This document shows positions 1,415 to 39,602 of a stretch of 64,000 bases of DNA, one piece after another (within the stretch, counting starts at the first letter, position 1; each line of letters starts with the position of its first letter). Source of the stretch: an uncultured bacterium. Lineage in GTDB: Bacteria > Zhuqueibacterota > QNDG01 > DTFT01. Location of the stretch: positions 65,479 to 129,478 of the forward strand of contig CAVTNR010000001.1 of NCBI GenBank assembly GCA_963736115.1. The letters run 5' to 3'. Both the position numbers and the translations under genes were made by a program. The notes below the pieces were generated by a model that had not been told where the DNA came from, did not search any database, and saw only the letters and a program-made list of their open reading frames with translations.

Positions 1415-4003
1415 ATGCCCCAGAAAAACAGGATCATTCTTGTCACCGGTGACGTCGTTCTCGACCACCATGTCTATGTCGGGGAAAGAACAGGTCCGGA
1501 CTCGTCCAGACGGGTCGGAACGATCGATCGGACCTCGGAGGGCGGGGCGGGACTGGTCTTCCGCATTCTCGAGACCCTTTCCACGCGGGATCATTCGACA
1601 CCTGGAGCCGAGGGAGGATACACGGTCGAATTCGGCCTTGATTCCGGAATTTTCGGCAAACTGGATTCCTGCCTGAACGCTTACGCGAACTGGAGGCCGT
1701 TTCCTCTGGATAAGCAACAGATCTGGCGGATGGACAGGGAACTGGGATACGGGAGCCCCTGCTCGAGGGTTTTTCCGTACGCCGAGCACTGCAATCCCAA
1801 ACTTTCCCCGGATCCGGAACTCCTGCTGATCGATGACGGCGGACTGGGCTTCCGGCATGGCATACAGAAGGCCGCATGGCCGTTCTGCCTGACCCATGAA
1901 AATGCCGGACTCCCGCGCTGGATCGTTCTGAAAATGTCCAGCCCGCTGGCGCAGGGCGACCTGTGGAGGCTTCTGTCCGGCCGTTTCCGGGACCGGCTGA
2001 TCGTGGTCGTGTCCATCGGCGACATCCGCAAGGAGGAGGTCCAGGTCAGCAGGGGCATTTCCTGGGAGCGCACGGCGATCGATCTCACCGAGGAACTGTG
2101 CGCGAATCCAGCGGTCAAGGGGCTCCTGAACTGCAGGCACCTGATCGTGTCGTTCGGGGACGAGGGGGCCCTGCACGTCGAAATCACCGGACAGGAGAAA
2201 CGGTTCAGGCTCTTTTTCGACATCTCCCAGATGGAACAGGAATCCGGCGAAAAGATCAAAGGCCGGGGGCTTGGATTCACCGCCTGCCTGACCTCGGGGA
2301 TGGCGGACAAACTGGCGCGTGGCGGATCGGAGGACCCGATCGCGGAAGGGATCCGGGCGGGGCTTTCGGCCATGCGCATGATGCACCTGCAGGGGCACGG
2401 TCCCGTGACCGACGGGACCCCCGGCTTTCCTTTCGATGCAGTGGCCCGGGACATCCTCGATCCGAAGAGCCGGTTTTCGGAGATTGATCTTCCCGATCCG
2501 GAGCGGTCCGATGCGGGCGTGAAAAAATCGTGGACGATCATGACCGCTTTTCTGGGCGGCGTGAAGAAAAATCCGCGTCCGCTGTACGGCGCGGGCCGCC
2601 GGGTCGCGATTCTGGGACCGGATGCTCTGAACCATGTTCCCTTCTCCCGTTTCGGCAGGGTGTTCACCGTGGATCGGAACGAGATCGAAAGCCTCCGTAC
2701 CATTCAGACCCTGATCCGGGATTACCTGGATCGGGATCCGGGAAAGAAGCCGTTGAATCTGGCCGTGTTCGGCCCTCCCGGCGCCGGGAAAAGTTTCGGC
2801 ATCGGCGAAATCGCGCGGGGCATTCTCGGGAAAGACGTACCCATACTCGAATTCAACCTGTCCCAGTTCGGAGACCCCGCCGCGCTGATGGGCGCGTTTC
2901 ACCAGGTGCGGGACAAGGTCCTCGAAGGGGTCATGCCCATCGTATTCTGGGACGAATTCGATTCGCGCGAGTACTTCTGGCTCCAGTACCTGCTCGCCCC
3001 CATGCAGGACGGGAAGTTCCTGGAGGGCCAGATTTCGCATCCGCTGGGGAAGTGCGTTTTCGTTTTCGCGGGCGGCACGAGTTATACCATGGAGAATTTC
3101 GGCCCGGTTCCGGGCGATGCCCGCAAATGGGAGGAGTTCAAGATCAAAAAGGGCCCTGATTTCGTCAGCCGGCTCGCGGGGTATCTCAACGTGCTGGGCC
3201 CCAACCGGCGGCTCGTCATGAATCCGTCGACAGGGACATGGGAGGATGACCCCGGCGATGTCTGTTTCCCCGTTCGAAGGGCGCTTCTGATGCGCTCCAT
3301 GCTCGGGTTGAAGGACGGGGACCGGCTGGATATCGATCAGGGCGTTTTGTCCGCTCTGATCGAGACGGACCGGTACAGGCACGGATCGCGGTCGCTGGAG
3401 AAGATCGTCCTGTCGCTGAAACGGACGGAATCCGCCATCCGTAGATCGGACCTGCCCACGGACGATATCCTGTCTCTCCATACGGACACGAACCGTTTTA
3501 TATCCATCATCAACCGGGACATGGCATTTCGATCGAATGCCGAGGTTCTGGCTCCGTTCGTGCACGAATTTTACAGGAAACTCGGAAAAGCGGAGGGGTG
3601 GATCCGGAAGGAAATGGACGTGGATTATCAGGACCTGCCGGATGAATACAAGGACGACAATCGCGCGGCGGCGGGCCGGGTATCCGCCGTCATTTCGCTC
3701 GTCGGGCTGTACATCGTGCCGGAGTCGCACCCGGTTTCCGATCCGCCCGGCGAGATAAAGGAAATCATCGGACGGAACATCGAAATTCTCGCTGAGGCCG
3801 AGCACAACGGATGGATGAAATACAAGCTGCAGAACGGATGGACGACCGGGGAGAAAAGGGACGAATCACGCAAGGTGCACGATTGCCTGAAACCCTATGG
3901 CGTATTGTCCGAGAAAGAGAAGGACAAGGACAGAAATTCGGCCAGAAACTTCGCCGCCATCATTAAGGAGGCGAAGTTCAAGCTGGTGACGAGTCTGGGG
4001 TGA
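1415..4003 (+). CDS. PfkB/RfaE-like N-domain + AAA ATPase + C-terminal RyR-repeat protein
   Basis: N-terminal ILVTGDVVLDHHVY...GGAG resembles RfaE/ribokinase. Walker A GPPGAGKS, Walker B IVFWDEFD. RyR motif AEAEHNGWMKYKLQNGW..G..RD..KVHDCLKPYGVLSEKEKDKDR. AAGGAA RBS upstream. Confidence 0.85.
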   Translation: MPQKNRIILVTGDVVLDHHVYVGERTGPDSSRRVGTIDRTSEGGAGLVFRILETLSTRDHSTPGAEGGYTVEFGLDSGIFGKLDSCLNAYANWRPFPLDKQQIWRMDRELGYGSPCSRVFPYAEHCNPKLSPDPELLLIDDGGLGFRHGIQKAAWPFCLTHENAGLPRWIVLKMSSPLAQGDLWRLLSGRFRDRLIVVVSIGDIRKEEVQVSRGISWERTAIDLTEELCANPAVKGLLNCRHLIVSFGDEGALHVEITGQEKRFRLFFDISQMEQESGEKIKGRGLGFTACLTSGMADKLARGGSEDPIAEGIRAGLSAMRMMHLQGHGPVTDGTPGFPFDAVARDILDPKSRFSEIDLPDPERSDAGVKKSWTIMTAFLGGVKKNPRPLYGAGRRVAILGPDALNHVPFSRFGRVFTVDRNEIESLRTIQTLIRDYLDRDPGKKPLNLAVFGPPGAGKSFGIGEIARGILGKDVPILEFNLSQFGDPAALMGAFHQVRDKVLEGVMPIVFWDEFDSREYFWLQYLLAPMQDGKFLEGQISHPLGKCVFVFAGGTSYTMENFGPVPGDARKWEEFKIKKGPDFVSRLAGYLNVLGPNRRLVMNPSTGTWEDDPGDVCFPVRRALLMRSMLGLKDGDRLDIDQGVLSALIETDRYRHGSRSLEKIVLSLKRTESAIRRSDLPTDDILSLHTDTNRFISIINRDMAFRSNAEVLAPFVHEFYRKLGKAEGWIRKEMDVDYQDLPDEYKDDNRAAAGRVSAVISLVGLYIVPESHPVSDPPGEIKEIIGRNIEILAEAEHNGWMKYKLQNGWTTGEKRDESRKVHDCLKPYGVLSEKEKDKDRNSARNFAAIIKEAKFKLVTSLG

Positions 4004-5722: not shown

Positions 5723-6051
5723 TTTAATCCCTCCCAATAGATGGGAACATGCAGAAATTTATCGGTACAGGATTCTATCACTAGGGGATCAGATGGCGAT
5801 TCATAAAATCGGAGCAAGGAAATGCCATAGACGGCAGGCTATACCGAAAATACAAGAAGGTGGCTTTCGCGGAAATATAAGGATGTCTTTCACGCTGACG
5901 ATCGTGTCTGTGGCCTTGTTGTTCTAGTATTTTAATCGATTTAGAATAGCAGAAGAGATGCGTATCAAAATCGTATTGAACCGAATGTTCGTTGAAAGTG
6001 GAAATCTTTCTTCCATGTATGCCAGATATTCTGAATGAATGTTTGCGGTAC

Positions 6052-10372: not shown

Positions 10373-12097
10373 CTACGCCTTTCCGAAGAGGGACTGTAGC
10401 CGTGATCCGTCCGAAATCTGAATGCCTCCGGTGGAGCCGAGCGCCAGGGAATCGATGCGGGGGTTGAAACTCAGAATGCCTGCGGCATGCGTGTATACGA
10501 TTTGGCCGTTCTTGAGAAGGGCATAGGTGTGGTCAGGATAAACGAATGAGACGTAGTGATCTTCATCCTGCACGCCGATACAGTAAGGCCTGGCGCCCTT
10601 TGTCGCATGGAATTTGATTCGCGGTACCAGCTGTTCGTCCACGAAAAGGCCGCTGCCGGTCTCATCCAAAGCAAGAATTCGATTTTCGGAGGGCATCGCA
10701 TGGGATATGTTTGCCAGATTGGAATGCCAGGGTGTCATCTTCCATTCGGCTAGAGAATACTGGTACAGTTTCTTTTCGCCGATCATGACAATATGGTCCT
10801 TGAAGCGTTTCATCCCGATGATGGAACGTTCCACCGGGAATTGTCGGACTGGCTGGTTCTCATGATACACGCAGAAATGACCCTGAAAATCGACAAGGCA
10901 GACGACCCGTCCGTCCGACTGGAAATCAAGGATTCCTGCCGGATGGCTGAACGACAGGCTTTTCTCACAGGAAGAGGAGTCGATCCGGACCATGTCGCCG
11001 TTCCACATTCCAACCATTACCTGTTCGCCGATGAGAATGCAATTCCCGGGAATTGCATACGATGGATTGCCCGGTTGTAATTGGATTTCCTTGCATTCAC
11101 CGGTTTCCCGAATCAGAAAGATGTTTCCGCACCAGTCGGCAAGTGCTATCAAACTGCCGGTGCATTGAATTTTTTTCATCTTCGAATGTACACGGACTTT
11201 GCCCAATAATTGTCCAGACAGGTCGAATACCCGGATATCGGTCAGATCGACCACGATGAACGCCTTACTTGTTTCGAAGAAATGGACTTGGGTGTTTTCT
11301 GGAGACCGGCCATATGGAACGGAAACGCCAGGACCTGGCGGAGGAGGTGGTGGTGTAGATACGACCTCGAAAGGATTGCTTGATGATGATTTATACCCAT
11401 CGGAACTGGCCGTAATGATGACATGACCGACTGAATGCCGGAAGGACAGGTCATTAAATACCGCAACCCCCTGGGATGTCTTCTGTTTGAGGGTACCCTG
11501 AAATCCATCTATATTTGCTGTCAATTCAACAATTTGGTCTTCTGAGCCGGGTTGTCCCCGGTCGGAGAGTGAAAGGCTTATTGGAGGTAATGTATTGTGA
11601 ATGACGACGTTGCCCAAAGGGGCTGCCCATTCAAGTTGTGGTACTTCACTGGTTATATTCAAACCCAAATCATGAATCAGTCGTGACAGCCAATGATCTG
11701 GATGTTTTTTTACGTCGAGATAATGGATATGATTGATCGACATGGGAATCAGGGATTTTGCCTCTTGATCGAGAAGAATAGGAAATATCTTGCCGGCGCT
11801 CCCGGTCGGATCAATTTGCAAAGTCTTTGTCAGTTCCCATTGAGTCATTTGTTTGTTAAAATATAGCGTGGAATAAACCAGAATTACGCATCGGCTCCGG
11901 AAAATAGCTTTTGCAAGAGCGTCGAGATATGATTGAGAAATTTGAAGACCGTTATCTTCATCCAGGAAAATGCCCGGTCTTTTTCCTTGTGGCGTTTTAC
12001 ATTGAGTCAATGGGATGTACAGGGAATTTTTAACCCAATCGTACTCTTCGCGCGCATAGCTGATGAAAATGTCGTAGGTGAATTCGCTGTTTTCCAT
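10373..12097 (-). CDS. TIR domain + Ig-like domain + beta-propeller protein
   Basis: TIR motifs YDIFISYARE, IFLDED, AIFRSRCVILVYS and QWEL. Then an Ig-like segment (GVAVFNDLSF), a poly-Pro linker and WD40-like blades (LADWCGNIFLI, VGMWNGDMVRI). Confidence 0.87.
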   Translation of the reverse strand: MENSEFTYDIFISYAREEYDWVKNSLYIPLTQCKTPQGKRPGIFLDEDNGLQISQSYLDALAKAIFRSRCVILVYSTLYFNKQMTQWELTKTLQIDPTGSAGKIFPILLDQEAKSLIPMSINHIHYLDVKKHPDHWLSRLIHDLGLNITSEVPQLEWAAPLGNVVIHNTLPPISLSLSDRGQPGSEDQIVELTANIDGFQGTLKQKTSQGVAVFNDLSFRHSVGHVIITASSDGYKSSSSNPFEVVSTPPPPPPGPGVSVPYGRSPENTQVHFFETSKAFIVVDLTDIRVFDLSGQLLGKVRVHSKMKKIQCTGSLIALADWCGNIFLIRETGECKEIQLQPGNPSYAIPGNCILIGEQVMVGMWNGDMVRIDSSSCEKSLSFSHPAGILDFQSDGRVVCLVDFQGHFCVYHENQPVRQFPVERSIIGMKRFKDHIVMIGEKKLYQYSLAEWKMTPWHSNLANISHAMPSENRILALDETGSGLFVDEQLVPRIKFHATKGARPYCIGVQDEDHYVSFVYPDHTYALLKNGQIVYTHAAGILSFNPRIDSLALGSTGGIQISDGSRLQSLFGKA

Positions 12098-27368: not shown

Positions 27369-29636
27369 TCAGGCCGGCCGAAGGGTCAGCCGTTCGTCCG
27401 AATCCGCATCAACGATCCAGACGGCTGAAGATCCGGCCCGGTTTTTTCTCAGGAATTCCATGAAAGCCTCCGCGGCCAGCGACCGCGCCTCCTCGATGAT
27501 CGCGCGGGCCCCGAATGCGAGGACGTGTGTGTCCATCCGTCCAATCACCCGCGATCCGACCGAAGGTTCCACCCGGACTTCGTCTACGTTCATCCGCATC
27601 CGTGACGCGGCCGCCCAAATCGAAGCGCGTATGGCGCGTTCGACGATCAGAGCCAGGGCGGGTCCGTCCAGCGGCCGGAACAGGATGGGTGTCCCGATCC
27701 GGGATAGAAAAGCGCCGGAGAAAAGATCCCGGATTTCGGAAAGGACCGTGTTCCGGATCTCCCGGTCGGAGGTCTGATCCTGAAATCCGATGCGTTTCCG
27801 CACTCCCTCGTCCCTTCCATTGGGCAGATTGATGGTGAACGCGAAGACCAGGTTGGCGCATGAGAACATCGTGCCCGAGGCGCTCTGGCCTTCGCCGGTC
27901 TCCAGGATCTGCAGGAAGATATCCGCAATGGCGGAGCGGACTTGGGGTGGCGCATGATCCAGGTCGCTCACCTCGACGAGGGCTCCGGCGTGATGTTTGG
28001 CGGCTTGTTCCAGTCGTCCGCTCTGGTAGGAGCCCACGATACCGCGTCCCGAGCCGAGAAGCTGGGCCGAGGCTGTGTAGAAATCGGGTATACTCGCAGC
28101 ATCGATGTTGATGTAGGGAATGCCCAGTTCCCGCGCCACCAGGACGGCGCTCTGGGATTTTCCTGTGGCCGGCGTGCCCTGGGCGCAGTAGCGGATGGGC
28201 TGGTGATCCGGCCGGGTCAGGCATTCCATTCGTAACCTCGCCACCAGCTGGTCGATGGCGTCGTCCTGGGCCAGGATTTCGGTCTTCACGACATCCGCCA
28301 GGTCAGACCGGGTCAGCACGGCGTTCAGACGTTCCTGGACATGCTCCAGTCGTCCGCCGCGGGGGCGGTTGGGCAGACCTGAAAAAGTCTCGGACAGTTC
28401 ATGTATATCCGTGGCGAAATCCCTGGCAGGTCGCGGAGGCGAGCCTCCGGCCTGAAGGATGTTCCATTCCCGCTGGACCAGCGCTGTCAGCACCCGGACC
28501 CGGCCCGAGGCCGGAAGGTCCGAGAGGGCCGACCGAATCCGGTCGAACAATCCGGATTTCAGCGCCGCCGGCACGCCGCCCGATTTCCAGCCGACCTGAT
28601 CGATTGAAAACCGGATCATCGAATCCTCCGGGATGTCCGGGGCGTGGCGGATAACCGGCAACAGGGGATCACTCGTACCGCCCTGCCCGCCGTGGAACAC
28701 CGATTGGAGTTGCGGATAGTTGCCCGTGAAAATGACCTGTTTCCCGGAGCCGGCCAAAAGTTGAAGCATGGTCTGCACTTCGTTGGCCATCTCGTAGGGA
28801 TTGATTCCGAAATTCAGGCATGCCGCGGGTACGGCCACAATGCCGGGAGCCTTGCCGGCCAGATCCACAAGTGTTTTTCCGTTCAGGGACGGCACCATCA
28901 GGCGTCCCACCGTTCCGCCGGCCGAGGAGAGATGCCGGGCCAGGTGGGCCAGAAGGTAATCCCCGGCGACCGGGTGCTGTATCGCGACGGCGATGGAGAG
29001 GGATCCGCTCATGAAATCGATCACCTGCCCGCACCAGGCGTCGAGAACCGGGGCGAAGGCGTCATCCGATTCCTTTCCCGGAAGGATGCATTCCAATATT
29101 TCGGAAATGTTCTTGTACCGTTCCAGCAGATCCGAGTCCGCAAGATCCTCGGGCAATTCGTCCTGAAGCGCAATGGCGGCGGATTCAAGATTCTTCAGCT
29201 CCGAGAGGAATACCCCGGAGCGTGTGGGCGTCATCGGGATCGCCTGAACCCGCATTTCGACCCACAGCGATGACTGACCGGAATCCGTCGTCTGGGCGGG
29301 AGGAATGAGGCGGACTTTATCGCCGAAACGGGACAGATGGGCGAACAGATTTTCGGCGGAGATCCGGACCGAGCGGGGCGCTTTCAGAAGTTCGAATTGT
29401 ATTCCGAGGACCCCGTCTTCGACAAGCCGGCAGGTGATGGCGCTGAGACCCTTCCGTCGGTTTTTTTCGCCCGGTCCGGTCCGGAAGGATTTTCCATCCG
29501 GCGCGACCGCCATTTCGATCGGAACAGCCTGACGGATCAGGCCGATGATCTGGTGAATGACGATGGCCGGATCCGGGCCGTCCGGGGTTTTGGAATTCCA
29601 GCTTGAGACGGTCGGCTGTTTGAATCCGGATGTCAT
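27369..29636 (-). CDS. ClpA/ClpB-like AAA+ protein (D2-like domain recognisable)
   Basis: Motifs EILAQDDAI, GTPATGKS, LLGSGRGIVGS, FLQILETG, FLSRIG..ILFRPLD and FGARAI follow the ClpB D2 layout. ATG at 29636 after AGGAGA. Confidence 0.85.
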   Translation of the reverse strand: MTSGFKQPTVSSWNSKTPDGPDPAIVIHQIIGLIRQAVPIEMAVAPDGKSFRTGPGEKNRRKGLSAITCRLVEDGVLGIQFELLKAPRSVRISAENLFAHLSRFGDKVRLIPPAQTTDSGQSSLWVEMRVQAIPMTPTRSGVFLSELKNLESAAIALQDELPEDLADSDLLERYKNISEILECILPGKESDDAFAPVLDAWCGQVIDFMSGSLSIAVAIQHPVAGDYLLAHLARHLSSAGGTVGRLMVPSLNGKTLVDLAGKAPGIVAVPAACLNFGINPYEMANEVQTMLQLLAGSGKQVIFTGNYPQLQSVFHGGQGGTSDPLLPVIRHAPDIPEDSMIRFSIDQVGWKSGGVPAALKSGLFDRIRSALSDLPASGRVRVLTALVQREWNILQAGGSPPRPARDFATDIHELSETFSGLPNRPRGGRLEHVQERLNAVLTRSDLADVVKTEILAQDDAIDQLVARLRMECLTRPDHQPIRYCAQGTPATGKSQSAVLVARELGIPYINIDAASIPDFYTASAQLLGSGRGIVGSYQSGRLEQAAKHHAGALVEVSDLDHAPPQVRSAIADIFLQILETGEGQSASGTMFSCANLVFAFTINLPNGRDEGVRKRIGFQDQTSDREIRNTVLSEIRDLFSGAFLSRIGTPILFRPLDGPALALIVERAIRASIWAAASRMRMNVDEVRVEPSVGSRVIGRMDTHVLAFGARAIIEEARSLAAEAFMEFLRKNRAGSSAVWIVDADSDERLTLRPA

Positions 29637-29681
29637 ACGTTCTCCTGTTCTGGGTGATCCAGCCACCCGATCCGGATAAGG

Positions 29682-29696
29682 ACAAAAAAAAGGCCA
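29682..29696 (-). promoter_or_regulatory. Possible sigma54 (-24/-12) promoter for the AAA/vWA operon
   Basis: Minus strand TGGCCTTTTTTTTGT = GG-N10-GT (canonical is GC), 46 nt upstream of the ATG and beside a divergent sigma54 activator gene. Confidence 0.3.
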
Positions 29697-29843
29697 GTTT
29701 TATAATGACCTGACCGGGTTGCAGTTAGGCGACGCATGGGGTTGAGTTTTCCCGGTTGATTTATATGGGACAATGCACTAAATTGTAAATAATACCGCGT
29801 GCAGATCAACTGCCGGACCCAAACACCACCCCGCGGGAGGATC

Positions 29844-31499
29844 ATGGAATACCAGGCCCTGCGATTCGAAGACCCGGACCGTCCGACATGCTGTACCCTC
29901 AGCGCGGAGACCGCCGAAGACATCCTTGAAATCAGGAAGGGTCGTCTTCCCGTTGTTTATCTGCTCGCGGACGACGCCATCGACCGCTTCACCGGATACC
30001 CCGCCCTGATCCGCGACCGCGGAACCAAGCACAAGAAAAAATCCCTGTCCGACCTGCTTCTCGGTTACGACCGAATCTGCATGATCCGGGGCTCCTATGA
30101 AGGAATCCGCCAGCTGATCCGGAGCTGTAACGATCTCCTGAAGAACGCCCGGGTTCAGGCGGATCAGAACGCGTTCCTCATTTTCATTCCCGACGGTCCC
30201 TTCATCCGTCTGTGGAATCGAACCAGCGGGAGCGGAACGCGCGCAAGGGACACGGGCAGATCCCTCGATCCCGGGACCCGGTCCGAGCTTCCCGGGATGC
30301 TTCCGATCCAGGAGGTTCCCCCGGAACTAAACGAAAGCTATCTGGGCCATTCGGAAGATGTTCGGCTGGTCCGGCAGTTGATCCTCGTCGCGGCCCGCTG
30401 TGAGAATCCGATTCTGATCCTGGGCGAATCCGGAACGGGCAAAGAGATCGCGGCCCGGAGCATACACCAGTTGAGCCTCCGGCGTAATCTCCGGTTTGAG
30501 GCGGTCAACTGCGGCGCACTTCCCACAAACCTGCTCGAATCCATTCTGTTTGGACACAAGAAGGGCGCATTCACCGATGCCAAACGGGACAAAAAGGGTT
30601 CCTGGGAACTGGCGGGAAAGGGGACGCTTTTTCTGGATGAGATCGGCGACCTGTCGCTGGAGAATCAGGTTAAAATTCTGCGCGTTCTCTCCTCCGGCCG
30701 GATTCGCCCGCTCGGCGCTGACGAGGATGTCGCCGTCCATGCGCATGTCATTGCCGCGACGAACCGGGATTTGTTTTCGATGGTACAGGCAGGACAGTTC
30801 CGGGAGGACCTGTATTACCGGCTGCGGTCTTTCCTGATTTTCACTCCTGCCCTGAGAAACCACCCCGACGACATTCCGCTGATGGCGCAAAGTTTTTGGA
30901 AGAAAATCACACGAGACGATTCGGCCCGCCTTCCGGCCTCCGTGCTGACCGAGATGAAGGCATACCCCTGGTACGGGAACGGCCGGGAGATGAAGAACCT
31001 GCTCTCACTGCTGTACGGTCTTTTCGGAAGGGTTCCGCTAGGCGTGGAACATTTCAGGGCGGTTTACCGGTATCAGCGGAATGACGCGCGTCCACGGAAG
31101 GGCGCTCCGGACGGGAATGATCTCTCGATGCACCGGGCCGAGTGCCTCCAGCACCTGAAACGGACGGATGAGGTCCTGCGGGAGGTGCAGATGGCCGTTC
31201 AGCCGCATCTCAAGAAAACGAGCCGGACTCCGGCCGACACGCGGACGACCGTTGCCCTGATCGAAAACCGGATTTACGAGCTCGAGACCCTGTGTCTCCA
31301 TCCCGTTCTTTTCGTCCATCCGGAGCTGTATCAGCGGATCCGCGATTTAAGCGCGGAACTGGTCGGTCTGGTCCGGCATTTGAGAAAATCGAGCGGTGCG
31401 GTGAAGGCATACTGGGCCAAACATCTGGATGGCCCTTGTCAGGAAACCCAGCGAATGGTCTTCCGGGAAGTCGGGAAGCTCATGCGGACTCGGAAATAA
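29844..31499 (+). CDS. Sigma54-dependent transcriptional activator (bEBP AAA domain)
   Basis: Motifs ILGESGTGKE, VNCGAL, ESILFGHKKGAFTDA, LFLDEIGDL, AATNRDL and FREDLYYRL. ATG at 29844 after GGGAGG. Confidence 0.92.
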   Translation: MEYQALRFEDPDRPTCCTLSAETAEDILEIRKGRLPVVYLLADDAIDRFTGYPALIRDRGTKHKKKSLSDLLLGYDRICMIRGSYEGIRQLIRSCNDLLKNARVQADQNAFLIFIPDGPFIRLWNRTSGSGTRARDTGRSLDPGTRSELPGMLPIQEVPPELNESYLGHSEDVRLVRQLILVAARCENPILILGESGTGKEIAARSIHQLSLRRNLRFEAVNCGALPTNLLESILFGHKKGAFTDAKRDKKGSWELAGKGTLFLDEIGDLSLENQVKILRVLSSGRIRPLGADEDVAVHAHVIAATNRDLFSMVQAGQFREDLYYRLRSFLIFTPALRNHPDDIPLMAQSFWKKITRDDSARLPASVLTEMKAYPWYGNGREMKNLLSLLYGLFGRVPLGVEHFRAVYRYQRNDARPRKGAPDGNDLSMHRAECLQHLKRTDEVLREVQMAVQPHLKKTSRTPADTRTTVALIENRIYELETLCLHPVLFVHPELYQRIRDLSAELVGLVRHLRKSSGAVKAYWAKHLDGPCQETQRMVFREVGKLMRTRK

Positions 31500-31523: not shown

Positions 31524-31964
31524 ATGAATTCGATACGACCGTTCTCGCTCTCCATTAAAGGCCTTATTTTCAACGCCGATGGGCGCTGCCTGATTCTGAA
31601 ACGATCGACGCTGAACAGAAATTACCCGGAGAAGTGGGAGCTTCCGGGCGGGAAACTGAATCCCGGTGAGTCGTTCGCTGACGCGTTGTGCCGGGAGGTT
31701 TCGGAGGAAACCGGCCTGCATATCGAGATCGACCATCTGGCGGGCGCGGTGGAATCGGAGCTCCCCGATTGGAGAATCGTGCATCTGGTCATGACCGCCC
31801 ACACGATACCGGGTGAAATCCGGCTGAGTTCGGAACACACGGATTACGCCTGGGTGGCGATAGACGATTTGGCGGAGTTGGATATGCCGGAACACTTCCT
31901 CCGGTTCATCCATGAGTACCGTAGAAAGGAGGGACTCCATGCCGGTGCGTCGCGGCCTCGTTAA
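31524..31964 (+). CDS. Nudix hydrolase
   Basis: Nudix box GGKLNPGESFADALCREVSEETGL. Confidence 0.92.
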   Translation: MNSIRPFSLSIKGLIFNADGRCLILKRSTLNRNYPEKWELPGGKLNPGESFADALCREVSEETGLHIEIDHLAGAVESELPDWRIVHLVMTAHTIPGEIRLSSEHTDYAWVAIDDLAELDMPEHFLRFIHEYRRKEGLHAGASRPR

Positions 31965-34446
31965 ACAGCAGATCGGAAAATACAGCCAGGAGTACAGGCA
32001 TTACGAAGTGTATTCACAGGTTCTAAGGAAAATACTGGAAGCGGCATGCCGGCAGGCCGCTCCGCTGGCCATCGTGCAAACCCGCGCGAAAACCGTCTCG
32101 AGCTTCGCGGAGAAAATTATCCGCAAGCCGACCGCGGACCCGGTCCATGATTTTACGGATCTTTGCGGGGCCCGGGTGATCACGAACACCAAAACTGAAG
32201 TCGATCGGTTGTGCGGGTTCATCCGTGCGAATTTCAATATCGATGAGCAGAACAGCCAGGATACTTTCGAACGGCTGAAAACGGCGGAATTCGGTTATCT
32301 GTCCGTCCATTACATCGTGCAGATCGACAGGAAGGAGATTCTCGGCATCCCCATTCCGGAATCGATCGGCGCGAGAAAGGCGGAAATTCAGGTCCGGACC
32401 CTGCTTCAGCATGCCTGGGCGAATATGAGCCATGACCTGATCTACAAGAACCGTTTCGAAGTACCCAGGCGATGGACCCGAAGCCTGGCGCGCACTTCGG
32501 CCCTGCTGGAACAGGCCGACGGTGTATTCGACGAGGTGCTCGGGGAACTCGATGCATACCGGCTCCATTACGGCATCTTGTCCGAACATTCCAAGAGGGA
32601 CGAGGAACTGAAGAATCTCGAATTGATTCTCGAGAATGAACCGGTCGAATCGCACAAGCCCGCAATCGCGCTCCGGATCGCCCGGCTGCACAAGACCGGC
32701 TGGAACTGGGAGGGGATCATTGACCGGCTGGGACCGTTCTCCGCCCGGAAATGCGGCGAGAGGCCGGAGATTCTCATGGAGTACGGCTATGCCATTTGCA
32801 GGAAAAACAAGGACAATCCCGGCGGCAGGGTTTATCTGAAAGGCCAGAAGCTTCTCGCGGAAGCGGCGGAATCGGGTGCGGGTGAGAATCACAGCGATGC
32901 GATATGCCATTACGCATGGTCTTATGAGAACATCAAGGGTCGCGAGCAGAAGGCCCGGAAACTGTACCGGCAGGCCCTCGACGCGGATCCGAAAGATCCC
33001 TATGCGCTCGCTTCCTTTCTGGAGTTTGAATTATTCTGCAGCCGTGACGACCGGTTCATACCGTACATGAAACCGACTTTGCTGCAGGCCGTCGAAACCT
33101 GCCGGGCCCACGTCAGGGCCGGGATGGAACTCCCGTGGGCCTTTTTCACCATGGGTAAAATGCATCTGCTCCTGGGCCAGCCGTATGAAAGTCTCGCGGC
33201 GGTCGCGACCGCCATACACGTCTGCCTGGGAACCGCGACCTGCGTGCCGCGGGACGTTTTTCAGGAGCAGCGGAATTTCCTGCGGCGCATCAATACCGGA
33301 AGGGAGTGGCCGCCCGCGCATCGGTGGGTCGATAAGACGCTGATGCTTGCGGAAGCCATTCGATCGCCGGACGGCCGTGCCCTGCGCCAGTTGAAGGAAA
33401 TGCGGAGGAGGCAAAAATCCTTTGCCGGACCGGTCGTTATCGTGGCGGGCGGCGCGGATTCATCCGTCCAGGGGAAAATGGCGGAATACCGTCTGCCGTT
33501 GATGCAATCCTTCGACGGTTTTTCCGGCACGGTCGTTTCCGGGGGCACCCGGGCCGGGATTCCGGGACTGGTCGGAGAAATGGCGCGAAAAGTTTCAGGT
33601 CGGAAAAGCGGAGGGCTGTTTGCATTGGCCTATCTTCCCGGTAAAATGCCGACCGGTGTCCAGATCGATCCGCGTTATCATGAAACCGTCATTCTGGAAG
33701 GAGACGATTTCACCCCGGACCAGCCTATTCAGAACTGGATCGACATGATCGCGTCGGGCATCAAACCTTCCGAAGTGAGGGTGCTGGGCATTAACGGGGG
33801 AAGGATTGCCGCTTTCGAGTACCGCCTGGCCCTCGCGCTCGGCGCCCGCGTGGGAATCGTACAGTCCAGCGGAAGAGCCGAATTGGATTTGCTGAAGGAA
33901 GCCAGATCTACCGCGATAAAAAATCTGGTGTGGCTTCCCGCGGACGCCATGACCCTTCGGGCGTTCGTCAATCCGGGCCTGACAGTGATGTCGCCCGGCC
34001 ATCTGGAAAGCGCGGGCAAAGCCATTCATACCGCTTTTTTGGTTGAGAACCGGCATCGAATCGTCGATCGGGCCATGCTCCCGTGGGAGGAATTGCCCGA
34101 GGACCTGAAGGAGTCCAATCGGAGCCAGGCGGCCTATTCCGTTCAAATTCTCAAGGCGGTCGGTTATGGTGTCCGAAAAGCCGCTTCGTCCCGCGTCTCC
34201 ATTCGGTTCACACGCAGTGAAATTGAAACCATGGCCGAGATGGAGCACGGCCGCTGGGTTGTTGAAAGGCTGGGAAGCGGGTGGAAATATGGTGAAAAAA
34301 GGGACCCGGTGAACCGAATTAGTCCCCACCTGGTGCCGTGGAAAGAACTCGCGGACAAGTTCAAGGGATATGACCGCATCGCCGTGTGCAAATGGCCGGC
34401 TCTGCTGAAGGATGCGGGATTGGAGATTTATCGACAGAAACGATAA
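31939..34446 (+). CDS. RelA/SpoT-type nucleotidyltransferase (alarmone synthetase) + TPR + SLOG + RyR repeats
   Basis: Synthetase motifs RAKTVSSFAEK, DLCGARVI, GYLSVHY and EIQVRTLLQHAWANMSHDLIYK, then TPR helices. SLOG-like VIVAGGA/VVSGGTRAGIPG/NGGRIAAFE. RyR motif AEMEHGRWVVERLGSGWKYGEKRD..SPHLVPW. AAGGAGG RBS before ATG 31939. Confidence 0.88.
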   Translation: MPVRRGLVKQQIGKYSQEYRHYEVYSQVLRKILEAACRQAAPLAIVQTRAKTVSSFAEKIIRKPTADPVHDFTDLCGARVITNTKTEVDRLCGFIRANFNIDEQNSQDTFERLKTAEFGYLSVHYIVQIDRKEILGIPIPESIGARKAEIQVRTLLQHAWANMSHDLIYKNRFEVPRRWTRSLARTSALLEQADGVFDEVLGELDAYRLHYGILSEHSKRDEELKNLELILENEPVESHKPAIALRIARLHKTGWNWEGIIDRLGPFSARKCGERPEILMEYGYAICRKNKDNPGGRVYLKGQKLLAEAAESGAGENHSDAICHYAWSYENIKGREQKARKLYRQALDADPKDPYALASFLEFELFCSRDDRFIPYMKPTLLQAVETCRAHVRAGMELPWAFFTMGKMHLLLGQPYESLAAVATAIHVCLGTATCVPRDVFQEQRNFLRRINTGREWPPAHRWVDKTLMLAEAIRSPDGRALRQLKEMRRRQKSFAGPVVIVAGGADSSVQGKMAEYRLPLMQSFDGFSGTVVSGGTRAGIPGLVGEMARKVSGRKSGGLFALAYLPGKMPTGVQIDPRYHETVILEGDDFTPDQPIQNWIDMIASGIKPSEVRVLGINGGRIAAFEYRLALALGARVGIVQSSGRAELDLLKEARSTAIKNLVWLPADAMTLRAFVNPGLTVMSPGHLESAGKAIHTAFLVENRHRIVDRAMLPWEELPEDLKESNRSQAAYSVQILKAVGYGVRKAASSRVSIRFTRSEIETMAEMEHGRWVVERLGSGWKYGEKRDPVNRISPHLVPWKELADKFKGYDRIAVCKWPALLKDAGLEIYRQKR

Positions 34447-34734: not shown

Positions 34735-34787
34735 TTATGGATAGCTTCGGAAAACTCTTCCTTCCGTCCAGAATTCGGGAGGTTCCC

Positions 34788-37700
34788 ATGTTGAGCCGCA
34801 TCCAGTCCCTGTCACAGCGTACGCTCCCGATTCTCCTGCTTCTGATCCCCCTATTGTCCGATCCGTCCCTGCGGGCCGCGGAACGCCGGACGAATGTGAA
34901 TTTTCTGGTGACAGCCGGCCGGGACGCGTCGATCTCTTCCGGGGACAGCCTGTTCCGCTCCGTTTTCTTCATCCGGTGTCCTATCGGTTTCAAATCCCCT
35001 GTTTACGTCCGGATTTTCGACGCGGACGCTGGCGGCCGTTTCGACCAGCCGGCTTCCGGGGACCGCGCCCGTTACCGGGTTTTCGGTAAAGGCGCCATCC
35101 GGCATTCCATCCGCTCGGTCCGCGACGCGCTCCCGGACGCAAAACCGCTGGCCGATCTCGAGATCGGGGAGGATGTGCTGTACGACGGCCAGTGGCGGAC
35201 CCTGGCGGTTCTGGTTCCGGCGGACGGGCAGGAAGCGGATTCGATCCGCGAATTTCAGCTTGTCGTAGACGGCGCGGCCGGAACCGGGGTCAACCGTTAC
35301 CGGCTTTTTGTCTCATCCGAAGACAGCCGCAACACGCCGGTCGAAGGGCTCGTGATTTCGAGCCCGGTCGCAACCGTCCTGCTGCCGGCTTCCAATATCC
35401 TGGTCACCCGCATTCCATTCCGCATCCCTTCAGCGGTTTCAGGCCTCAGGATCACGGTTTTCGACGCCGAGAGCATGGGCGAGTGCTATGTGCAGACTGA
35501 AAAACGCATGAAGATACAGGTTCCGGTTTCAGGCAATATGGAATCACGATCCACGCATGTGGACCTCCTGCCGGAGGAGAGGGGCGGAAAGGCCGGACTG
35601 ATGTTCGCGGGATCCCACTCCAGGCAGGACCATGTTCAGTGCCGGATCGAGGACGACTCCGGCGCCACGGTCGATTTTCTCATGCCAGCGTTTTCTTCCA
35701 CGGACAACAGCCTGCCCTCGCCTGCCATCGATCTTCAGCCGCTATCGGATTGTGTGTCCATCGTGCTCGACGCGTCTCGTTCGACCGATCCGGACGGGGA
35801 CCAGCTGTTTTTCGAATGGAAATCCGGAGGGGCGTGTATCGGCGCGGGACCGCGCATCGTTCACCGTTTTCCCGGGCCGGGCCTGTACAAGGTCGAAATG
35901 ACAGTGCGCGACAATTCTGGATACATCGCGGACCGGCGGACATTGGAACGGGCCGTGCGGATCAACGAGCCCCCGGTTTCCCTGCCTGCCGCGCCTTCGG
36001 GAGGAGCGCCGGGAGAAGCCCTGGTTTTCGATGGCAGCGGCTCGTCCGACGCGGACGGAAGGATCACGGCCTGGCGCTGGGATTTCGGAGACGGGGCCGG
36101 CGCATCGGGCGCGGTCACCCGGCACACGTACGCGGTTCCCGGCCATTACCGCGTCACTTTAACCGTGGAGGACGACAGCCGGTCGTTCTGCGCGTCGGAC
36201 GGCCAATCCGTTTCAGTGCGCATCAATTCGCCGCCGATGGCCCGTATGCGGGCGCAGTCCAGAGCCGCGGTCGGGGAGGAAGTGCAGGCGGACGGCGGCG
36301 GGTCGAAGGACGCGGACGGAACCCTTGTCCGGTACGCATGGGATTTCGGAGACGGCGCGACAGCCGAAGGCGTGACAGCCGGCCACAAGTACGCAGCGCC
36401 TGGCCTTTACCGCATCCGCTTGGCCGTGACGGATGACGCGGAACGGATCAACAGCTCGCAAACCGATTCCGCTCTGGTACGGATCAATGCGCCTCCCGAA
36501 GCGAGGGGACAGGCTCCGGCCGTTGTCGCGGCGGGTCAGGAAGTTGTGTTCGATGGTTCCGCATCGCGCGATCCGGACGGCCGCATTGTCGCAACAGAGT
36601 GGATTTTAGGCGACGGATCCGCGGACGCGTCCGGGCCGATTGTCCGGCACGCGTATGAAAAGCCGGGCACCTACGAGGTGATTCTGCGGGTCCGGGATGA
36701 TTCCGGAGTGTCCAGCGACACGGACACGCTCCGGCTCTCCGTCCGGGTGAACGCGCCGCCTGTTCCGAATGCGGGAGGCGACCGGGTGCTCAATGAAAGC
36801 GTCGCGCTGTTTGACGCGTCCGGATCCGCGGATCCGGACGATCCCATCATTTCTTACCGTTGGGATTTCGGGGACGGAAAGTCCGCTGAGGGCCTGCGTG
36901 TGCGCCATGCTTACAACCTGCCCGGCACTTATGAGGTCAGCCTCACGGTCACGGACGCTTCCGGCACGTCTTCCGCTTCGCGGACCGGCCGCATCCGGGT
37001 CACGGTGAACCATCCTCCAATCGCGGACGCGGGCCCGGCCCGCACCGTAGCCCCGGGGGAGCCGGTGCTTCTGGACGGTGGATTCTCGAGCGATCCGGAC
37101 GGCCGCATCGAATCCTTCCGCTGGGAGATCGAACCCGGTATTTTCCGGGAGGGCCGGCGGGTGGAGATCGCATACGACAAACCCGGACTGCGCCAGCCCC
37201 TCCTGTTCGTCCGGGATGACGCGGGCGCTGAGGATGTTTTCGCGACCGAGATCCGTGTCAACGCGCCGCCGGTTGCGGCCGCGGCGCCGGTACCGTCCGC
37301 GGCGCCCGGCGACACCGTGGTCTTCGACGGAAGGGGCTCCCGCGATCCGGACGGCCGCATCGCCGAGGCTGTGTGGGACTTCGGGGACGGAACGCCGCCC
37401 GTCAACGGACTGCGGTGCGCCCATGTGTACGCGGCACCCGGCGTCTACTCCGCGGTCCTGAGAATCCGGGACGACAGCGGCGCAGGCAACGGGTTGGCCT
37501 CGGTGGTGTGCACGGCGGCAATCAACCACGCGCCGGAACCGGACGCGGGCGGCGACCGCAGCCAGTGCGGTTTGATGGTGGATTTCGACGGATCCGCCAG
37601 CCGGGACGCGGACGGAGACGCCCTGTCCCTGAGATGGGATTTCGGGGACAGCACCTCGGCCTATGGCAGGCGCGTCCGCCACCGTTACCCGAAACCGGGG

Positions 37701-39602
37701 CTGTACCCGGTGAGGCTCATCGCGGACGACGGAACCGGACTGGCGAACGGCCGGAGCGAGACCTTCATCAAGGTTCACCTGCATTCCGCGCCCGTAGCCA
37801 TTCTGGACGCTCCCGTCCAGGTATGCGCAGGGGAAAATGTTCTTTTCGACGCAAGCCGGTCCTTCGACGAGGATCGGGATCTGCTTTTATTTGAATGGGA
37901 TTTCGGAGACGGAGCGAAGGGAGCGGGGGCGACAGCCGAGCACACCTTCCGCGCTGGCGGGCTGGTTCGGGTTCTTCTGACCGTGCGGGATAACAGCGGA
38001 CTGCCGTGCAATGAATCGGCGGCTACGGCCGTGATACGCGTGACCGACGCGCCCGTGGCGCAGGCCGGACCGGATCAGACCGTATGCGCAAATCAATCCG
38101 TTGTGTTCGACGGAACCGGGTCCGGGGGCGGCAAACGGCCTATTCAGGGATACGAATGGGATTTCGGGGACGGCGGCCAGGGCGGGGGCGTCCATCCCGT
38201 GCATGCTTACACGCGGCCGGGACTGTACACCGTGCGGCTCCGGATCACAGTGCCGGCAGAGGGGAATTGCGAAAATTTTTCGGAGGACGAGATGACGGTG
38301 CGGGTCCTGCCCTCTCCGGTCGCATCCTTCGAGGCGGATCCGGTCGTCTGTCCGGGAGCGGATGTGGTGTTCGATGCCGGCGAACCGGATGGGGAACCGG
38401 CTCCGGCAGGGCGTTATGAATGGGACTTCGGGGACGGTGTCACGGGTTCGGGACCCCGGATGACGCACCGGTTCGGAAAACCGGGGACCTTCACGGTCCG
38501 TCTGACCGTGACCACGGACGGTGAGGAGGGCTGCCGGACCGCATCGGCTGAACGGACGGTATTCGTGAACGAAAGACCCGAGGCCGGAATCGAAACCGGG
38601 CATGTGGAACGGCCCGGCCCGGGCGAAGCCATCCGGTTCATGGCTTTTCAGAGCCGGGACGGAGACGGGGTCATTCGCTCCTATACATGGGATTTCGGAG
38701 ACGGGGAAAAGGCCGAAGGTGTCGAGGCCGTGCACCGATACCGGAAGCCGGGCGCATTCCTGGCTGTTCTGCGGGTGGAGGATGACAGCGGCACGGATTG
38801 CGGAGTCGATACCGTTTCCGTCCGGATGCTCATTGAAAAACCCGCGGACCCGTGGGCGCCCGTAGGACCGGCTGCGCTGGCCGTCGGGGAGCCTGGTGTT
38901 TTTTCCGTCCCGGAGAACGGTCCGTCCGGAGAAACGGTCTGGACGTTTGGGGACGGGGACACGCTGACCGGCCCGCGGGTTTCCAAGTCTTTCCGCGCAC
39001 CGGGAACCTGGCAGGTTCAGGCGGGCGGTTCCGGATCCTGGAGCAGGTCCGTCGAGGTCCGGGTCATGGCTGCGCCTGAAGTGACCGCGCCGGAGCGCAT
39101 GGATGCCGACGTCCTCGTTCCGACCGAGTTCCGCGCGTCCGTTTCAGAACGGGACCTCGTTTTCCCAGCCGTGGTCTGGAATTTCGGGGACGGCCGCATG
39201 CTGGAATCCAATCCGGCCGTTCATACCTATGAGAAACCCGGATCCTACGAGGCCTCCGTAACCGTGAGGGATGCCCGCAATCCGGCTGTTCCGGCCGCGG
39301 TCCGGCCGGTGGCCGTGACCGTGCACCCGCCGCCGGAGGCCCGCATCGAAGTCAGCCCTGACACCCTGTACGCCGGCGGCGGCAGGGACGAGGTTCTGTT
39401 TCTGGCCGTGCCCCTTCATCCGGATGTCCCGATCGCGGCGCAATGGGAATTCGGAGACGGCCGGTCCGGCCGGGGCAGCCGCGTCCTGCATGCCTACGCC
39501 CGTCCGGGCGCGTATACGGTCCGGCTCACGATATGGAATACCCACCGTCCGTCGTCCAGACCGGTGTCTGTCGAGAAACAGATTCGGATATGGCCGCGAT
39601 GA
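34788..39602 (+). CDS. Large secreted PKD-repeat protein
   Basis: N-terminal signal peptide and about 14-15 PKD repeats (FDGSxSxDPDG..WDFGDG..HxYxxPGxYxVxLxVxD). GGGAGG RBS. Confidence 0.92.
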   Translation: MLSRIQSLSQRTLPILLLLIPLLSDPSLRAAERRTNVNFLVTAGRDASISSGDSLFRSVFFIRCPIGFKSPVYVRIFDADAGGRFDQPASGDRARYRVFGKGAIRHSIRSVRDALPDAKPLADLEIGEDVLYDGQWRTLAVLVPADGQEADSIREFQLVVDGAAGTGVNRYRLFVSSEDSRNTPVEGLVISSPVATVLLPASNILVTRIPFRIPSAVSGLRITVFDAESMGECYVQTEKRMKIQVPVSGNMESRSTHVDLLPEERGGKAGLMFAGSHSRQDHVQCRIEDDSGATVDFLMPAFSSTDNSLPSPAIDLQPLSDCVSIVLDASRSTDPDGDQLFFEWKSGGACIGAGPRIVHRFPGPGLYKVEMTVRDNSGYIADRRTLERAVRINEPPVSLPAAPSGGAPGEALVFDGSGSSDADGRITAWRWDFGDGAGASGAVTRHTYAVPGHYRVTLTVEDDSRSFCASDGQSVSVRINSPPMARMRAQSRAAVGEEVQADGGGSKDADGTLVRYAWDFGDGATAEGVTAGHKYAAPGLYRIRLAVTDDAERINSSQTDSALVRINAPPEARGQAPAVVAAGQEVVFDGSASRDPDGRIVATEWILGDGSADASGPIVRHAYEKPGTYEVILRVRDDSGVSSDTDTLRLSVRVNAPPVPNAGGDRVLNESVALFDASGSADPDDPIISYRWDFGDGKSAEGLRVRHAYNLPGTYEVSLTVTDASGTSSASRTGRIRVTVNHPPIADAGPARTVAPGEPVLLDGGFSSDPDGRIESFRWEIEPGIFREGRRVEIAYDKPGLRQPLLFVRDDAGAEDVFATEIRVNAPPVAAAAPVPSAAPGDTVVFDGRGSRDPDGRIAEAVWDFGDGTPPVNGLRCAHVYAAPGVYSAVLRIRDDSGAGNGLASVVCTAAINHAPEPDAGGDRSQCGLMVDFDGSASRDADGDALSLRWDFGDSTSAYGRRVRHRYPKPGLYPVRLIADDGTGLANGRSETFIKVHLHSAPVAILDAPVQVCAGENVLFDASRSFDEDRDLLLFEWDFGDGAKGAGATAEHTFRAGGLVRVLLTVRDNSGLPCNESAATAVIRVTDAPVAQAGPDQTVCANQSVVFDGTGSGGGKRPIQGYEWDFGDGGQGGGVHPVHAYTRPGLYTVRLRITVPAEGNCENFSEDEMTVRVLPSPVASFEADPVVCPGADVVFDAGEPDGEPAPAGRYEWDFGDGVTGSGPRMTHRFGKPGTFTVRLTVTTDGEEGCRTASAERTVFVNERPEAGIETGHVERPGPGEAIRFMAFQSRDGDGVIRSYTWDFGDGEKAEGVEAVHRYRKPGAFLAVLRVEDDSGTDCGVDTVSVRMLIEKPADPWAPVGPAALAVGEPGVFSVPENGPSGETVWTFGDGDTLTGPRVSKSFRAPGTWQVQAGGSGSWSRSVEVRVMAAPEVTAPERMDADVLVPTEFRASVSERDLVFPAVVWNFGDGRMLESNPAVHTYEKPGSYEASVTVRDARNPAVPAAVRPVAVTVHPPPEARIEVSPDTLYAGGGRDEVLFLAVPLHPDVPIAAQWEFGDGRSGRGSRVLHAYARPGAYTVRLTIWNTHRPSSRPVSVEKQIRIWPR

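Follow-up and report, generated by a model that had tools for sequence, protein, structure and literature searches.

A candidate ligand-gated alarmone synthetase carrying SLOG and RyR domains and paired with a Nudix hydrolase

Background

The small alarmone synthetase (SAS) Tde-SAS of Treponema denticola (TDE1711, DsRel family) makes ppGpp, pppGpp, pGpp and some ppApp, and its TPR domain acts as a brake (PMC10434055); it is the only SAS-TPR enzyme known to have been characterised. Here we describe a two-gene locus that resembles this system in part. The locus lies in a 64,000-nucleotide (nt) stretch of DNA, hereafter the window, from an uncultured bacterium of the Zhuqueibacterota (assembly GCA_963736115.1, contig CAVTNR010000001.1, positions 65,479 to 129,478), and consists of a Nudix hydrolase gene that overlaps the gene of a large RelA/SpoT synthetase protein with TPR-like, SLOG and RyR regions. 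Like Tde-SAS, this protein has a RelA/SpoT synthetase domain without an HD domain, followed by a TPR region, and the hydrolase is a separate protein (Tde-SAH in T. denticola). Unlike the large protein of the window, Tde-SAS has 410 amino acids (aa) and lacks SLOG and RyR domains, its hydrolase is a small alarmone hydrolase (SAH) and not a Nudix protein, and it is the main (p)ppGpp source of its organism (PMC10434055).

Other described systems share single elements with the locus. The synthetases RelP and RelQ (PDB 2be3, 3l9d, 6fgk and 5dec) align with the synthetase domain over about 170 residues, with E-values of 3.6e-21 to 7e-18 and all motifs aligned, but each of them consists of a single domain (about 210-250 aa in all), lacks sensor domains and does not have a Nudix protein as its dedicated partner. 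The toxSAS modules (FaRel, CapRel; PMC7229694) also pair a RelA/SpoT synthetase with an adjacent neutralising gene, whose product is in some cases an alarmone hydrolase. They differ in being remote in sequence; the protein described here has four times their size and includes sensor domains for small molecules, its partner is a Nudix protein, and 32 of the 79 loci that we compared have no adjacent hydrolase. Type I Thoeris (ThsB TIR and ThsA SIR2-SLOG) is similar in that a SLOG sensor is fused to an arresting effector (a predicted one in our case), SLOG being the sensor of ThsA (PMC7272460). TIR neighbours at 23 of the 79 loci add to the likeness, and RyR domains bind the same cyclic ADP-ribose (cADPR) signals (PMC13232231). 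Unlike in Thoeris, the effector is an alarmone synthetase and not a SIR2 NADase, the SLOG domain is of the TRPM (LSDAT) type, and a product hydrolase is added. By gene content and PADLOC models the locus is not a Thoeris system: it has no adjacent TIR (ThsB) gene, no ThsA-type effector (SIR2-SLOG or Macro-TM) and no PADLOC Thoeris match. By analogy, the large protein may act like ThsA, as a SLOG sensor with an arresting effector, and also like one half of a toxSAS-SAH pair.

A further set of relatives comes from phages and animals. RyDEP, a phage protein of the family PF02026, cleaves 2'/3'cADPR, and its ligand residues H75, W78, H100 and D117 are conserved in Repeat12 of animal ryanodine receptors (RyR); six of eight tested phage RyR (PF02026) domains bind 2'/3'cADPR, catalysis was seen in one of nine tested RyDEP-family proteins (RyDEP itself), and AMP-PCP is an example of the adenine nucleotides that are bound by RyR3 repeat domains (PMC13232231). 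The MHR1/2 region of TRPM channels is a SLOG domain, which binds ADP-ribose (ADPR) in TRPM2 (PMC13143021). What the locus has in common with phage RyDEP and RyR sponges, animal RyR Repeat12 and TRPM2 (SLOG plus a NUDT9H Nudix domain) are the families PF02026, PF18171 and PF00293. Like the animal Ca2+ channels, it brings together the three ADPR-related modules SLOG, RyR and Nudix, here in one operon. The setting differs from that of RyDEP and the channels, since the modules come from host genes and are joined to an enzyme instead of an ion channel or forming a stand-alone anti-defence protein; the Nudix protein is MutT-like, in contrast to the NUDT9-like domain of TRPM2, and the counterpart of RyDEP H100 is a serine.

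The architecture of the large protein is not described in the literature that we searched by title or abstract, and the original LSDAT description lies outside that search. LSDAT was reportedly defined and named by Burroughs et al. 2015. In the accessible portion of Kaur et al. 2020 (PMC7159879), the RelA domain is mentioned only as a rare effector fused to vWA. The available text of Atkinson et al. 2011 contains an unplaced 'divRel' synthetase of Methanosarcina acetivorans without a known hydrolase. We propose, with moderate confidence, that the locus encodes an alarmone synthetase gated by a ligand, together with an enzyme dedicated to erasing its product, both acting in a TIR-linked nucleotide-signalling conflict network that is probably antiviral.

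Results and discussion

Gene pair and synthetase domain

The Nudix gene (31524..31964, + strand) encodes a MutT/NudG-like protein of 146 aa, and the synthetase gene (31939..34446, + strand) a protein of 835 aa in the order RelA/SpoT synthetase, helical/TPR-like region, SLOG and tandem RyR. This 835-aa form is identical (100%) to the protein-database entry P0005, and its start codon, ATG 31939, sits 5 nt after AAGGAGGG (31926-31933), the ribosome-binding site. An earlier note on this DNA, made from the letters alone, had described an overlap of 26 nt between the two genes, which is borne out with this start and the Nudix stop at 31964. A longer open reading frame (ORF) of the synthetase gene (31912-34446, + strand, 844 aa) begins at an alternative ATG, 31912, from which the overlap would be 53 nt; residue numbers of the large protein are counted from this ATG. 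The pair belongs to three closely spaced plus-strand genes, namely that of an enhancer-binding protein, the Nudix gene 24 nt downstream of it and the overlapping synthetase gene. A sigma-70-like consensus match at 29679-29706 is the more likely candidate for their common promoter. The sigma-54 consensus TGGCAC-N5-TTGCW was discarded as a candidate: with up to 2 mismatches, it gave 16 matches against 20.3 expected, none of them before the operon.

The RelA_SpoT synthetase domain covers residues 57-181 (32080..32454, + strand; Pfam 1.5e-18). The motifs of the RelA/SpoT homologue (RSH) superfamily, RxKxxxSxxxK, DxxGxR, GYxSxH, EIQ(V/I)RT and HxxxYK, are all present. They are intact, as the earlier note had stated, and conserved: all motif residues are invariant in 28 homologues with 40-72% identity (R58, K60, S64, K68, D83, G86, R88, G128, Y129 and H133, and further on E158, Q160, R162, T163, H167, H174, Y178 and K179), and likewise in a second alignment of 36 homologues. 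The same note's statement that there is no HD domain was confirmed, with no Pfam match to HD, TGS or ACT domains in the large protein at E up to 0.1; a match to TIGR00691 is confined to positions 188-287. The motifs and domain content class the protein as a member of the RSH superfamily, of the synthetase-only class. It falls outside the strict definition of a small alarmone synthetase (single-domain, about 200-400 aa), with 835 aa and SLOG and RyR domains. When the synthetase-domain profile was compared with the PDB, RelP and RelQ matched at 3.6e-21 to 6e-14, followed by CapRel (7ztb) at 1e-4, long Rel at 7e-4 and FaRel2 (8pu3) at 0.02, and by sequence the domain belongs to none of the toxSAS subfamilies FaRel, FaRel2, PhRel, PhRel2 and CapRel.

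The synthetase domain is followed by a helical linker with TPR-like repeats (residues ~200-500; 32509..33411, + strand). A match to TPR_2 in this protein is sub-threshold, with an E-value of 0.0026 and 18.2 bits against a cut-off of 27. Precomputed TPR families are present on 11 of the 120 listed homologues, and TPR was also found in the proteins of loci L058 and L032. The earlier description of a SLOG domain after TPRs stands for its SLOG part, which Pfam places above the cut-off; for the TPR part there are sub-threshold matches only. No support was found for the idea of TPR-triggered alarmone production; in Tde-SAS, the TPR region acts in the opposite sense, as a brake (PMC10434055).

Candidate sensor modules

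The SLOG domain, of the TRPM type (LSDAT_prok), spans residues 507-672 (33430..33927, + strand; Pfam 1.1e-6), and its score of 28.4 bits places it marginally within the family PF18171 (gathering cut-off 25.4). The SLOG motifs GGT-x2-G-x2-G and INGG...E are kept, and GG-T-x2-G and G629-G630 are invariant in the 28 members. A search with the SLOG profile against solved structures returned nothing significant, TRPM2 (6co7) being at E 0.11.

Two RyR-type repeats occupy the C-terminus. The first one is degenerate (residues ~700-757; 34009..34182, + strand; H706, W725 and S735-N-R) and aligns to a RyR2 repeat. The second one is canonical (residues 771-842; 34222..34437, + strand; H779, W782 and D821), belongs to Pfam RyR (PF02026) over residues 771-828 with 8.7e-15 and 55.2 bits (cut-off 27.4), and matches the RyR1/2/3 repeat domains in the PDB and 3nrt of B. 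thetaiotaomicron. With a degenerate repeat upstream of a canonical one, the arrangement is that of a tandem module, as in Repeat12. Residues E778, H779, R781, E785, R786, W810 and D821 are invariant in the 28-member alignment; over all the alignments compared, H779 is invariant, and W782 and D821 are nearly so. The spacing of H779, W782 and D821 (+3, +42) equals that of H75, W78 and D117 in RyDEP (PMC13232231), and in an aligned RyR1 repeat the residues H, W, H and D fall precisely on the RyDEP offsets. The RyR module is now the better-documented candidate sensor (PMC13232231), a point that the earlier note had missed.

Hydrolase partners

The 146-aa partner matches Pfam NUDIX at 1.5e-19 (70.7 bits, gathering score 21.1). 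Its Nudix box (GX5EX7REUXEEXGU), read from the translation, is complete from G43 to L65 (31650..31718, + strand), with the residues G43-x5-E49-x7-R57-E58-V-x-E61-E62-x-G64-L65. The top NCBIfam matches are of the MutT, NudI and NudG types, all under their cut-offs; the closest solved structure is 3grn, a 'MutT related protein' (3.8e-25), and in PADLOC the protein matches the candidate-system model PDC-S07 (2e-23). It falls outside the ADP-ribose pyrophosphatase (ADPRase) subgroup, whose first member appears at 2.4e-4. These matches mark the protein as MutT/NudI/NudG-like and not ADPRase-like.

For a comparison across genomes, ORFs were called at 80 loci from a scan for relatives of the large protein, of which 79 have a closed synthetase ORF; that of L076 runs off its contig. 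A Nudix gene was counted if it was related to that of the window (phmmer E <1e-3), on the same strand and directly adjacent or fused. Such a gene is present at 43 of the 79 loci, upstream in 26, downstream in 14 and as an N-terminal fusion in 3, all three fusions being confirmed by Pfam. This count is conservative, as L080 was missed through an ORF-calling overlap and several other loci have a Nudix gene 1-3 kb away. Linkage in other genomes had been set beforehand as the test on which the proposed pairing could fail, and it holds.

Four loci without any Nudix match (L027, L030, L041 and L077) carry instead a protein of about 180-230 aa with an HD domain, encoded 17-46 nt upstream of the synthetase gene or overlapping it by 16 nt. 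The profile of this protein matched 7p1y at 1.2e-46, then Mesh1 (3nqw, 3nr1 and 5vxa), the hydrolase domains of Rel and small alarmone hydrolases. Two unrelated hydrolase folds therefore occupy one slot, and since one of them is an alarmone 3'-pyrophosphohydrolase, we argue that the Nudix protein acts on the product of the synthetase. This is the best available argument for the predicted role of the Nudix protein as the remover of a 3'-pyrophosphate product.

The hydrolase arrangements are also ordered by descent. A FastTree phylogeny was built from 73 rows, namely the window and the 72 loci whose ORF reaches 700 aa, so that seven shorter ones were excluded. On this tree they are clustered, requiring 24 changes against 36.6 in shuffles, and none of 200 shuffles gave so low a number. 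The fused Nudix forms make up one clade, and the SAH loci fall within one six-row clade, sister to a clade with downstream Nudix genes. An adjacent hydrolase of either kind is missing at 32 of the 79 loci.

The overlapping two-gene layout and the PADLOC candidate matches would also suit a classical toxSAS toxin-antitoxin system, in which the synthetase pyrophosphorylates tRNA 3'-CCA ends or depletes ATP, the Nudix protein is the antitoxin and the C-terminus senses a phage protein as in CapRel. SAH proteins are known as toxSAS antitoxins, which also counts for this explanation. We nevertheless give it little credence: CapRel (1e-4) and FaRel2 (0.02) are remote compared with RelP/RelQ (4e-21), the variable gene order and the 32 loci without an adjacent hydrolase would be odd for an essential antitoxin, and SLOG and RyR are small-molecule pockets in all studied cases.

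The replacement of the Nudix protein by a Mesh1/SAH-type hydrolase, which points to a 3'-pyrophosphate product, bears on another explanation as well, namely that the operon encodes a nucleotide-remodelling enzyme. In that case, the synthetase would pyrophosphorylate an ADPR-type molecule bound in the SLOG or RyR domain, RyR repeat 2 or SLOG would be a glycosidase, and the Nudix protein would trim the product. LOG-type SLOG enzymes cleave N-glycosidic bonds and Nudix enzymes commonly cleave ADPR, both of which fit such a scheme. The glycosidase RyDEP moreover uses an H/D pair that is kept here, but catalysis was found in one of nine RyDEP-family proteins (PMC13232231), and the Nudix protein is MutT/NudG-like and not ADPRase-like. 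Together with the hydrolase replacement, this makes nucleotide remodelling highly improbable.

Genomic neighbourhood

Neighbouring genes were compared by clustering the ORFs within 4 kb and then running hidden Markov model searches over the whole loci. TIR genes occur within 6 kb at 23 of the 79 loci, and Pfam assigned all 29 of 29 matches to TIR_2 or ThsB_TIR, with scores above its cut-offs. At 17 loci there are STAND NTPases that carry DUF4062 at the N-terminus, so that either a TIR gene or a DUF4062-STAND gene is present at 36. A possible kinship of DUF4062 with TIR was considered and rejected: the hhalign probability was 1.7%, the first strand alone was alike, and homology was not shown. 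Extra RyR-domain proteins are encoded at 35 of the 79 loci; full-length homologues of a second RyR protein of the window lie within 6 kb at 14, and shorter ones, mostly TrkA_N-RyR, at 23. A ClpB-like double AAA+ protein lies within 4 kb at 13 loci, five of which also have a YbjN-like protein. At least one partner of any kind is present at 66 of the 79 loci. On the scale of whole genomes, a TIR_2 gene was found in 44 of 50 family-bearing genomes, compared with 4 of 14 control genomes. The co-occurrence with TIR genes, one of which is also present in the window, lends indirect support to the view that the SLOG domain senses TIR products.

Two loci have unusual neighbours. Directly downstream of the synthetase gene in L007 (8621-10225) is a fusion of DUF4062 with NTP_transferase (sugar-nucleotidyl-transferase), in place of the usual DUF4062-STAND. 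The upstream neighbour in L075 (1924-5934) is a polyvalent protein of 1336 aa (ddrB-ParB, MuF_C, LPD3), which is typical of phages and conjugative elements, so the synthetase copy there may ride on a mobile element.

Full-length Rel/SpoT is also encoded in 33 of the 50 family-bearing genomes, including the nearest relative (72% identity), and the gene tree mixes phyla and domains of life; the synthetase gene therefore appears to be accessory and not the main alarmone gene. Both facts speak against an ordinary stress or housekeeping synthetase of the DsRel/RelQ type, tuned to NAD/ADPR or energy status and with no role in conflict, for which the Nudix protein or SAH would be the obligatory hydrolase. 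The same is true of the TIR, STAND and extra RyR neighbours at most loci. Such a housekeeping role fits the nearest solved relatives, RelP and RelQ, as well as Tde-SAS, a working (p)ppGpp synthetase in an organism without a long RSH (PMC10434055), and the lack of a full-length Rel in 17 of the 50 genomes and in the 87%-complete assembly of the window. On balance we regard it as improbable. In those 17 genomes, the missing full-length Rel means that the large protein could be the main alarmone synthetase.

Proposed mechanism

The direction of control, the ligand, the product and its effect on growth are what we infer in the following scheme. The large protein would be a receptor-effector fusion. 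At rest, the TPR-like helical region would restrain the RelP/RelQ-like pyrophosphokinase, a brake modelled on that of Tde-SAS. Towards the C-terminus, SLOG and the tandem RyR module would both contain a pocket suited to an adenine-ribose nucleotide, the likeliest ligand being ADP-ribose or a cyclic ADP-ribose isomer made by TIR proteins whose genes lie close by or at other sites of the same genome. Once bound, the ligand would free the synthetase to transfer pyrophosphate from ATP to a purine nucleotide at its 3'-OH. The alarmone so formed would then cause growth arrest; it would most likely be (p)ppGpp or pGpp, and possibly (pp)pApp. The co-translated MutT-type Nudix protein (SAH in one clade) would degrade the product, setting a threshold against leaky activation and allowing recovery.

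A more far-reaching version can be offered tentatively. TIR-made cADPR, read by SLOG and RyR, might trigger an alarmone burst as a Thoeris-like effector arm that is reset by Nudix or SAH; RyR might be a shared receiver for synthetase, AAA+ and TrkA_N effectors; and this prokaryotic network might be the origin of the SLOG, RyR Repeat12 and Nudix modules that gate TRPM2 and ryanodine-receptor channels.

If the proposal of a ligand-gated synthetase is true, it joins two separate fields, growth control by alarmones ((p)ppGpp/(pp)pApp) and immune signalling by TIR-made NAD derivatives. RyR domains, for which binding or cleavage of cADPR signals has just been demonstrated in phages, would in their host-encoded form gain a first role in the cell, that of receivers. 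The presence of the TRPM2 and RyR-channel ADPR modules in a single prokaryotic operon bears on the origin of those modules, and the clean two-gene core of a large family (at least 587 species genomes) is testable in E. coli.

Several findings weigh against this proposal. In the window itself there is no adjacent TIR gene, the nearest being 19.4 kb upstream of the Nudix gene, and PADLOC gives matches to candidate systems (PDC-S07 for the Nudix protein and PDC-S33 for the synthetase) and to no known system. Across the family, no TIR gene lies within 6 kb at 56 of the 79 loci, TIR_2 was not found in 6 of the 50 genomes, and the TIR proteins that are neighbours, mostly fused to STAND, WD40 or TPR, may be effectors and not signal makers. 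The profile comparison places the synthetase domain far nearer to the housekeeping RelP and RelQ than to toxSAS, and no full-length Rel was found in 17 of the 50 genomes (from PVC phyla and archaea, with two fragmentary cases). As for the sensors, the SLOG call is marginal, with no significant solved relative by sequence; the acidic residue is lost in the first RyR repeat (S-N-R), and the counterpart of RyDEP H100 (+25) is Ser804 in the second, which keeps three of the four ligand residues.

The 56 loci with no TIR gene within 6 kb can also be accommodated by a self-contained circuit. Here, the synthetase would make an adenine-type alarmone such as (pp)pApp, which would be read by its own SLOG and RyR domains and by neighbouring TrkA_N-RyR and AAA+-RyR proteins and erased by Nudix or SAH, with TIR-STAND proteins as mere co-residents. 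Extra RyR proteins are nonetheless present at 35 of the 79 loci, and the synthetase is the sole nucleotide-making enzyme seen in those loci. The binding of AMP-PCP by RyR3 repeats (PMC13232231) and the synthesis of ppApp by Tde-SAS (PMC10434055) would fit as well. We consider such a circuit unlikely, since Tde-SAS is not allosterically stimulated by alarmones (PMC10434055), the ligands on record for RyR domains of bacteria and phages and for TRPM-type SLOG domains are of the ADPR type and not 3'-pyrophosphorylated, and a TIR or DUF4062-STAND gene at 36 of the 79 loci is a high share for mere co-residence.

Distribution, architecture variants and phylogeny

Relatives of the large protein are encoded in at least 587 species genomes of bacteria and archaea, in a scan of one genome per species. 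The lineages include Acidobacteriota, Chloroflexota, Planctomycetota, Bacteroidota, Actinomycetota, KSB1 and several archaeal lineages. All of the 120 best database matches carry RelA_SpoT and RyR (40-72% identity, with 97-99% coverage for nearly all), and LSDAT_prok (PF18171) is precomputed on 45 of these 120. Short forms occur with RelA_SpoT and TPR (about 400 aa) and with SLOG and RyR (about 410 aa), which gives the large protein the look of two modules that have been fused. Among look-alikes in the ESM Atlas are clusters of about 410-420 aa with RelA_SpoT and TPR (score 0.77-0.78), which resemble Tde-SAS and are no more than a lead. Homologues of 965-985 aa (P0023, P0028, P0041 and P0100) have a conserved N-terminal extension of about 115 aa, for which a Nudix identity was rejected; it matches no Pfam family. 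In a metagenome-assembled genome (MAG) of Bathyarchaeia (L032, 1466-4648), the synthetase-SLOG-RyR ORF runs into a KaiC-like ATPase (residues 841-1042), which is either a true fusion or the result of a missed stop or a frameshift.

The gene tree intermingles phyla and domains of life. The loci are mostly contigs of MAGs, and some taxon labels look wrong. The copy of a Methanosarcina MAG (L027) is sister to a Rikenellaceae copy (L030), with end branches of 0.13 and 0.17, which reflects either a recent inter-domain transfer or a binning error. L008, labelled 'uncultured Klebsiella sp.', clusters with copies from Lentisphaerota and Verrucomicrobiota and comes from a genome without a long RSH, suggesting that its label is wrong.

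Other features of the window

In the assembly of the window (G000, 87% complete), no HD_4 and no long Rel/SpoT was found. This is most likely an assembly gap, as the nearest relative has a full-length Rel. Given the incomplete assembly and the full Rel of the nearest relative and of 33 of the 50 genomes, we rejected the argument that the large protein has a housekeeping role because its genome has no other alarmone synthetase.

The first gene of the operon (29844..31499, + strand) encodes a sigma-54-type enhancer-binding protein (Sigma54_activat 2.5e-59). Its N-terminal and C-terminal parts, about 165 aa each, have no Pfam match at E up to 5, and its alignment with RtcR_PspF2 of PADLOC is limited to the AAA+ core; despite a strong sigma-54 AAA+ core, it has no recognisable sensor or DNA-binding domain. 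Orthologues stand next to the synthetase gene in the nearest relatives only (L002, L034 and L036). The divergent gene on the other side (27369..29666, - strand) encodes a ClpB-like AAA+ protein (AAA_2 3e-7), an orthologue of the recurrent family neighbour, in which the domains are clearer (AAA, AAA_2, ClpB_D2-small).

The second RyR-domain protein of the window (1415..4003, + strand; 862 aa) ends in a RyR domain and shows a weak AAA+ P-loop (GPPGAGKS), while its N-terminal half belongs to no known family. It lies about 28 kb from the operon, and the two RyR matches of the whole assembly are both inside the window. The nearest TIR-domain protein (10373..12097, - strand; 574 aa) matches Pfam TIR_2 at 1.1e-13. 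With a TIR gene and a second RyR protein, the window loosely matches the neighbourhood pattern of the family.

A long run of genes on the minus strand (4082-29666) contains two HSP70 paralogues (4082-5737 and 19014-21056), four TPR-like proteins, the TIR protein, an M48 peptidase (12149-13018), a MoxR-like AAA_5 protein (26338-27351), the ClpB-like protein and seven proteins without a Pfam family, and no PADLOC system matched it. Its gene content gives it the appearance of a chaperone/NTPase-type conflict island. On the other side of the operon, beyond an AT-rich spacer of 290 nt, is the gene of a secreted-looking protein of 1621 aa with 15 PKD repeats (34737-39602, + strand), and the same neighbour is found in the nearest relative, L002.

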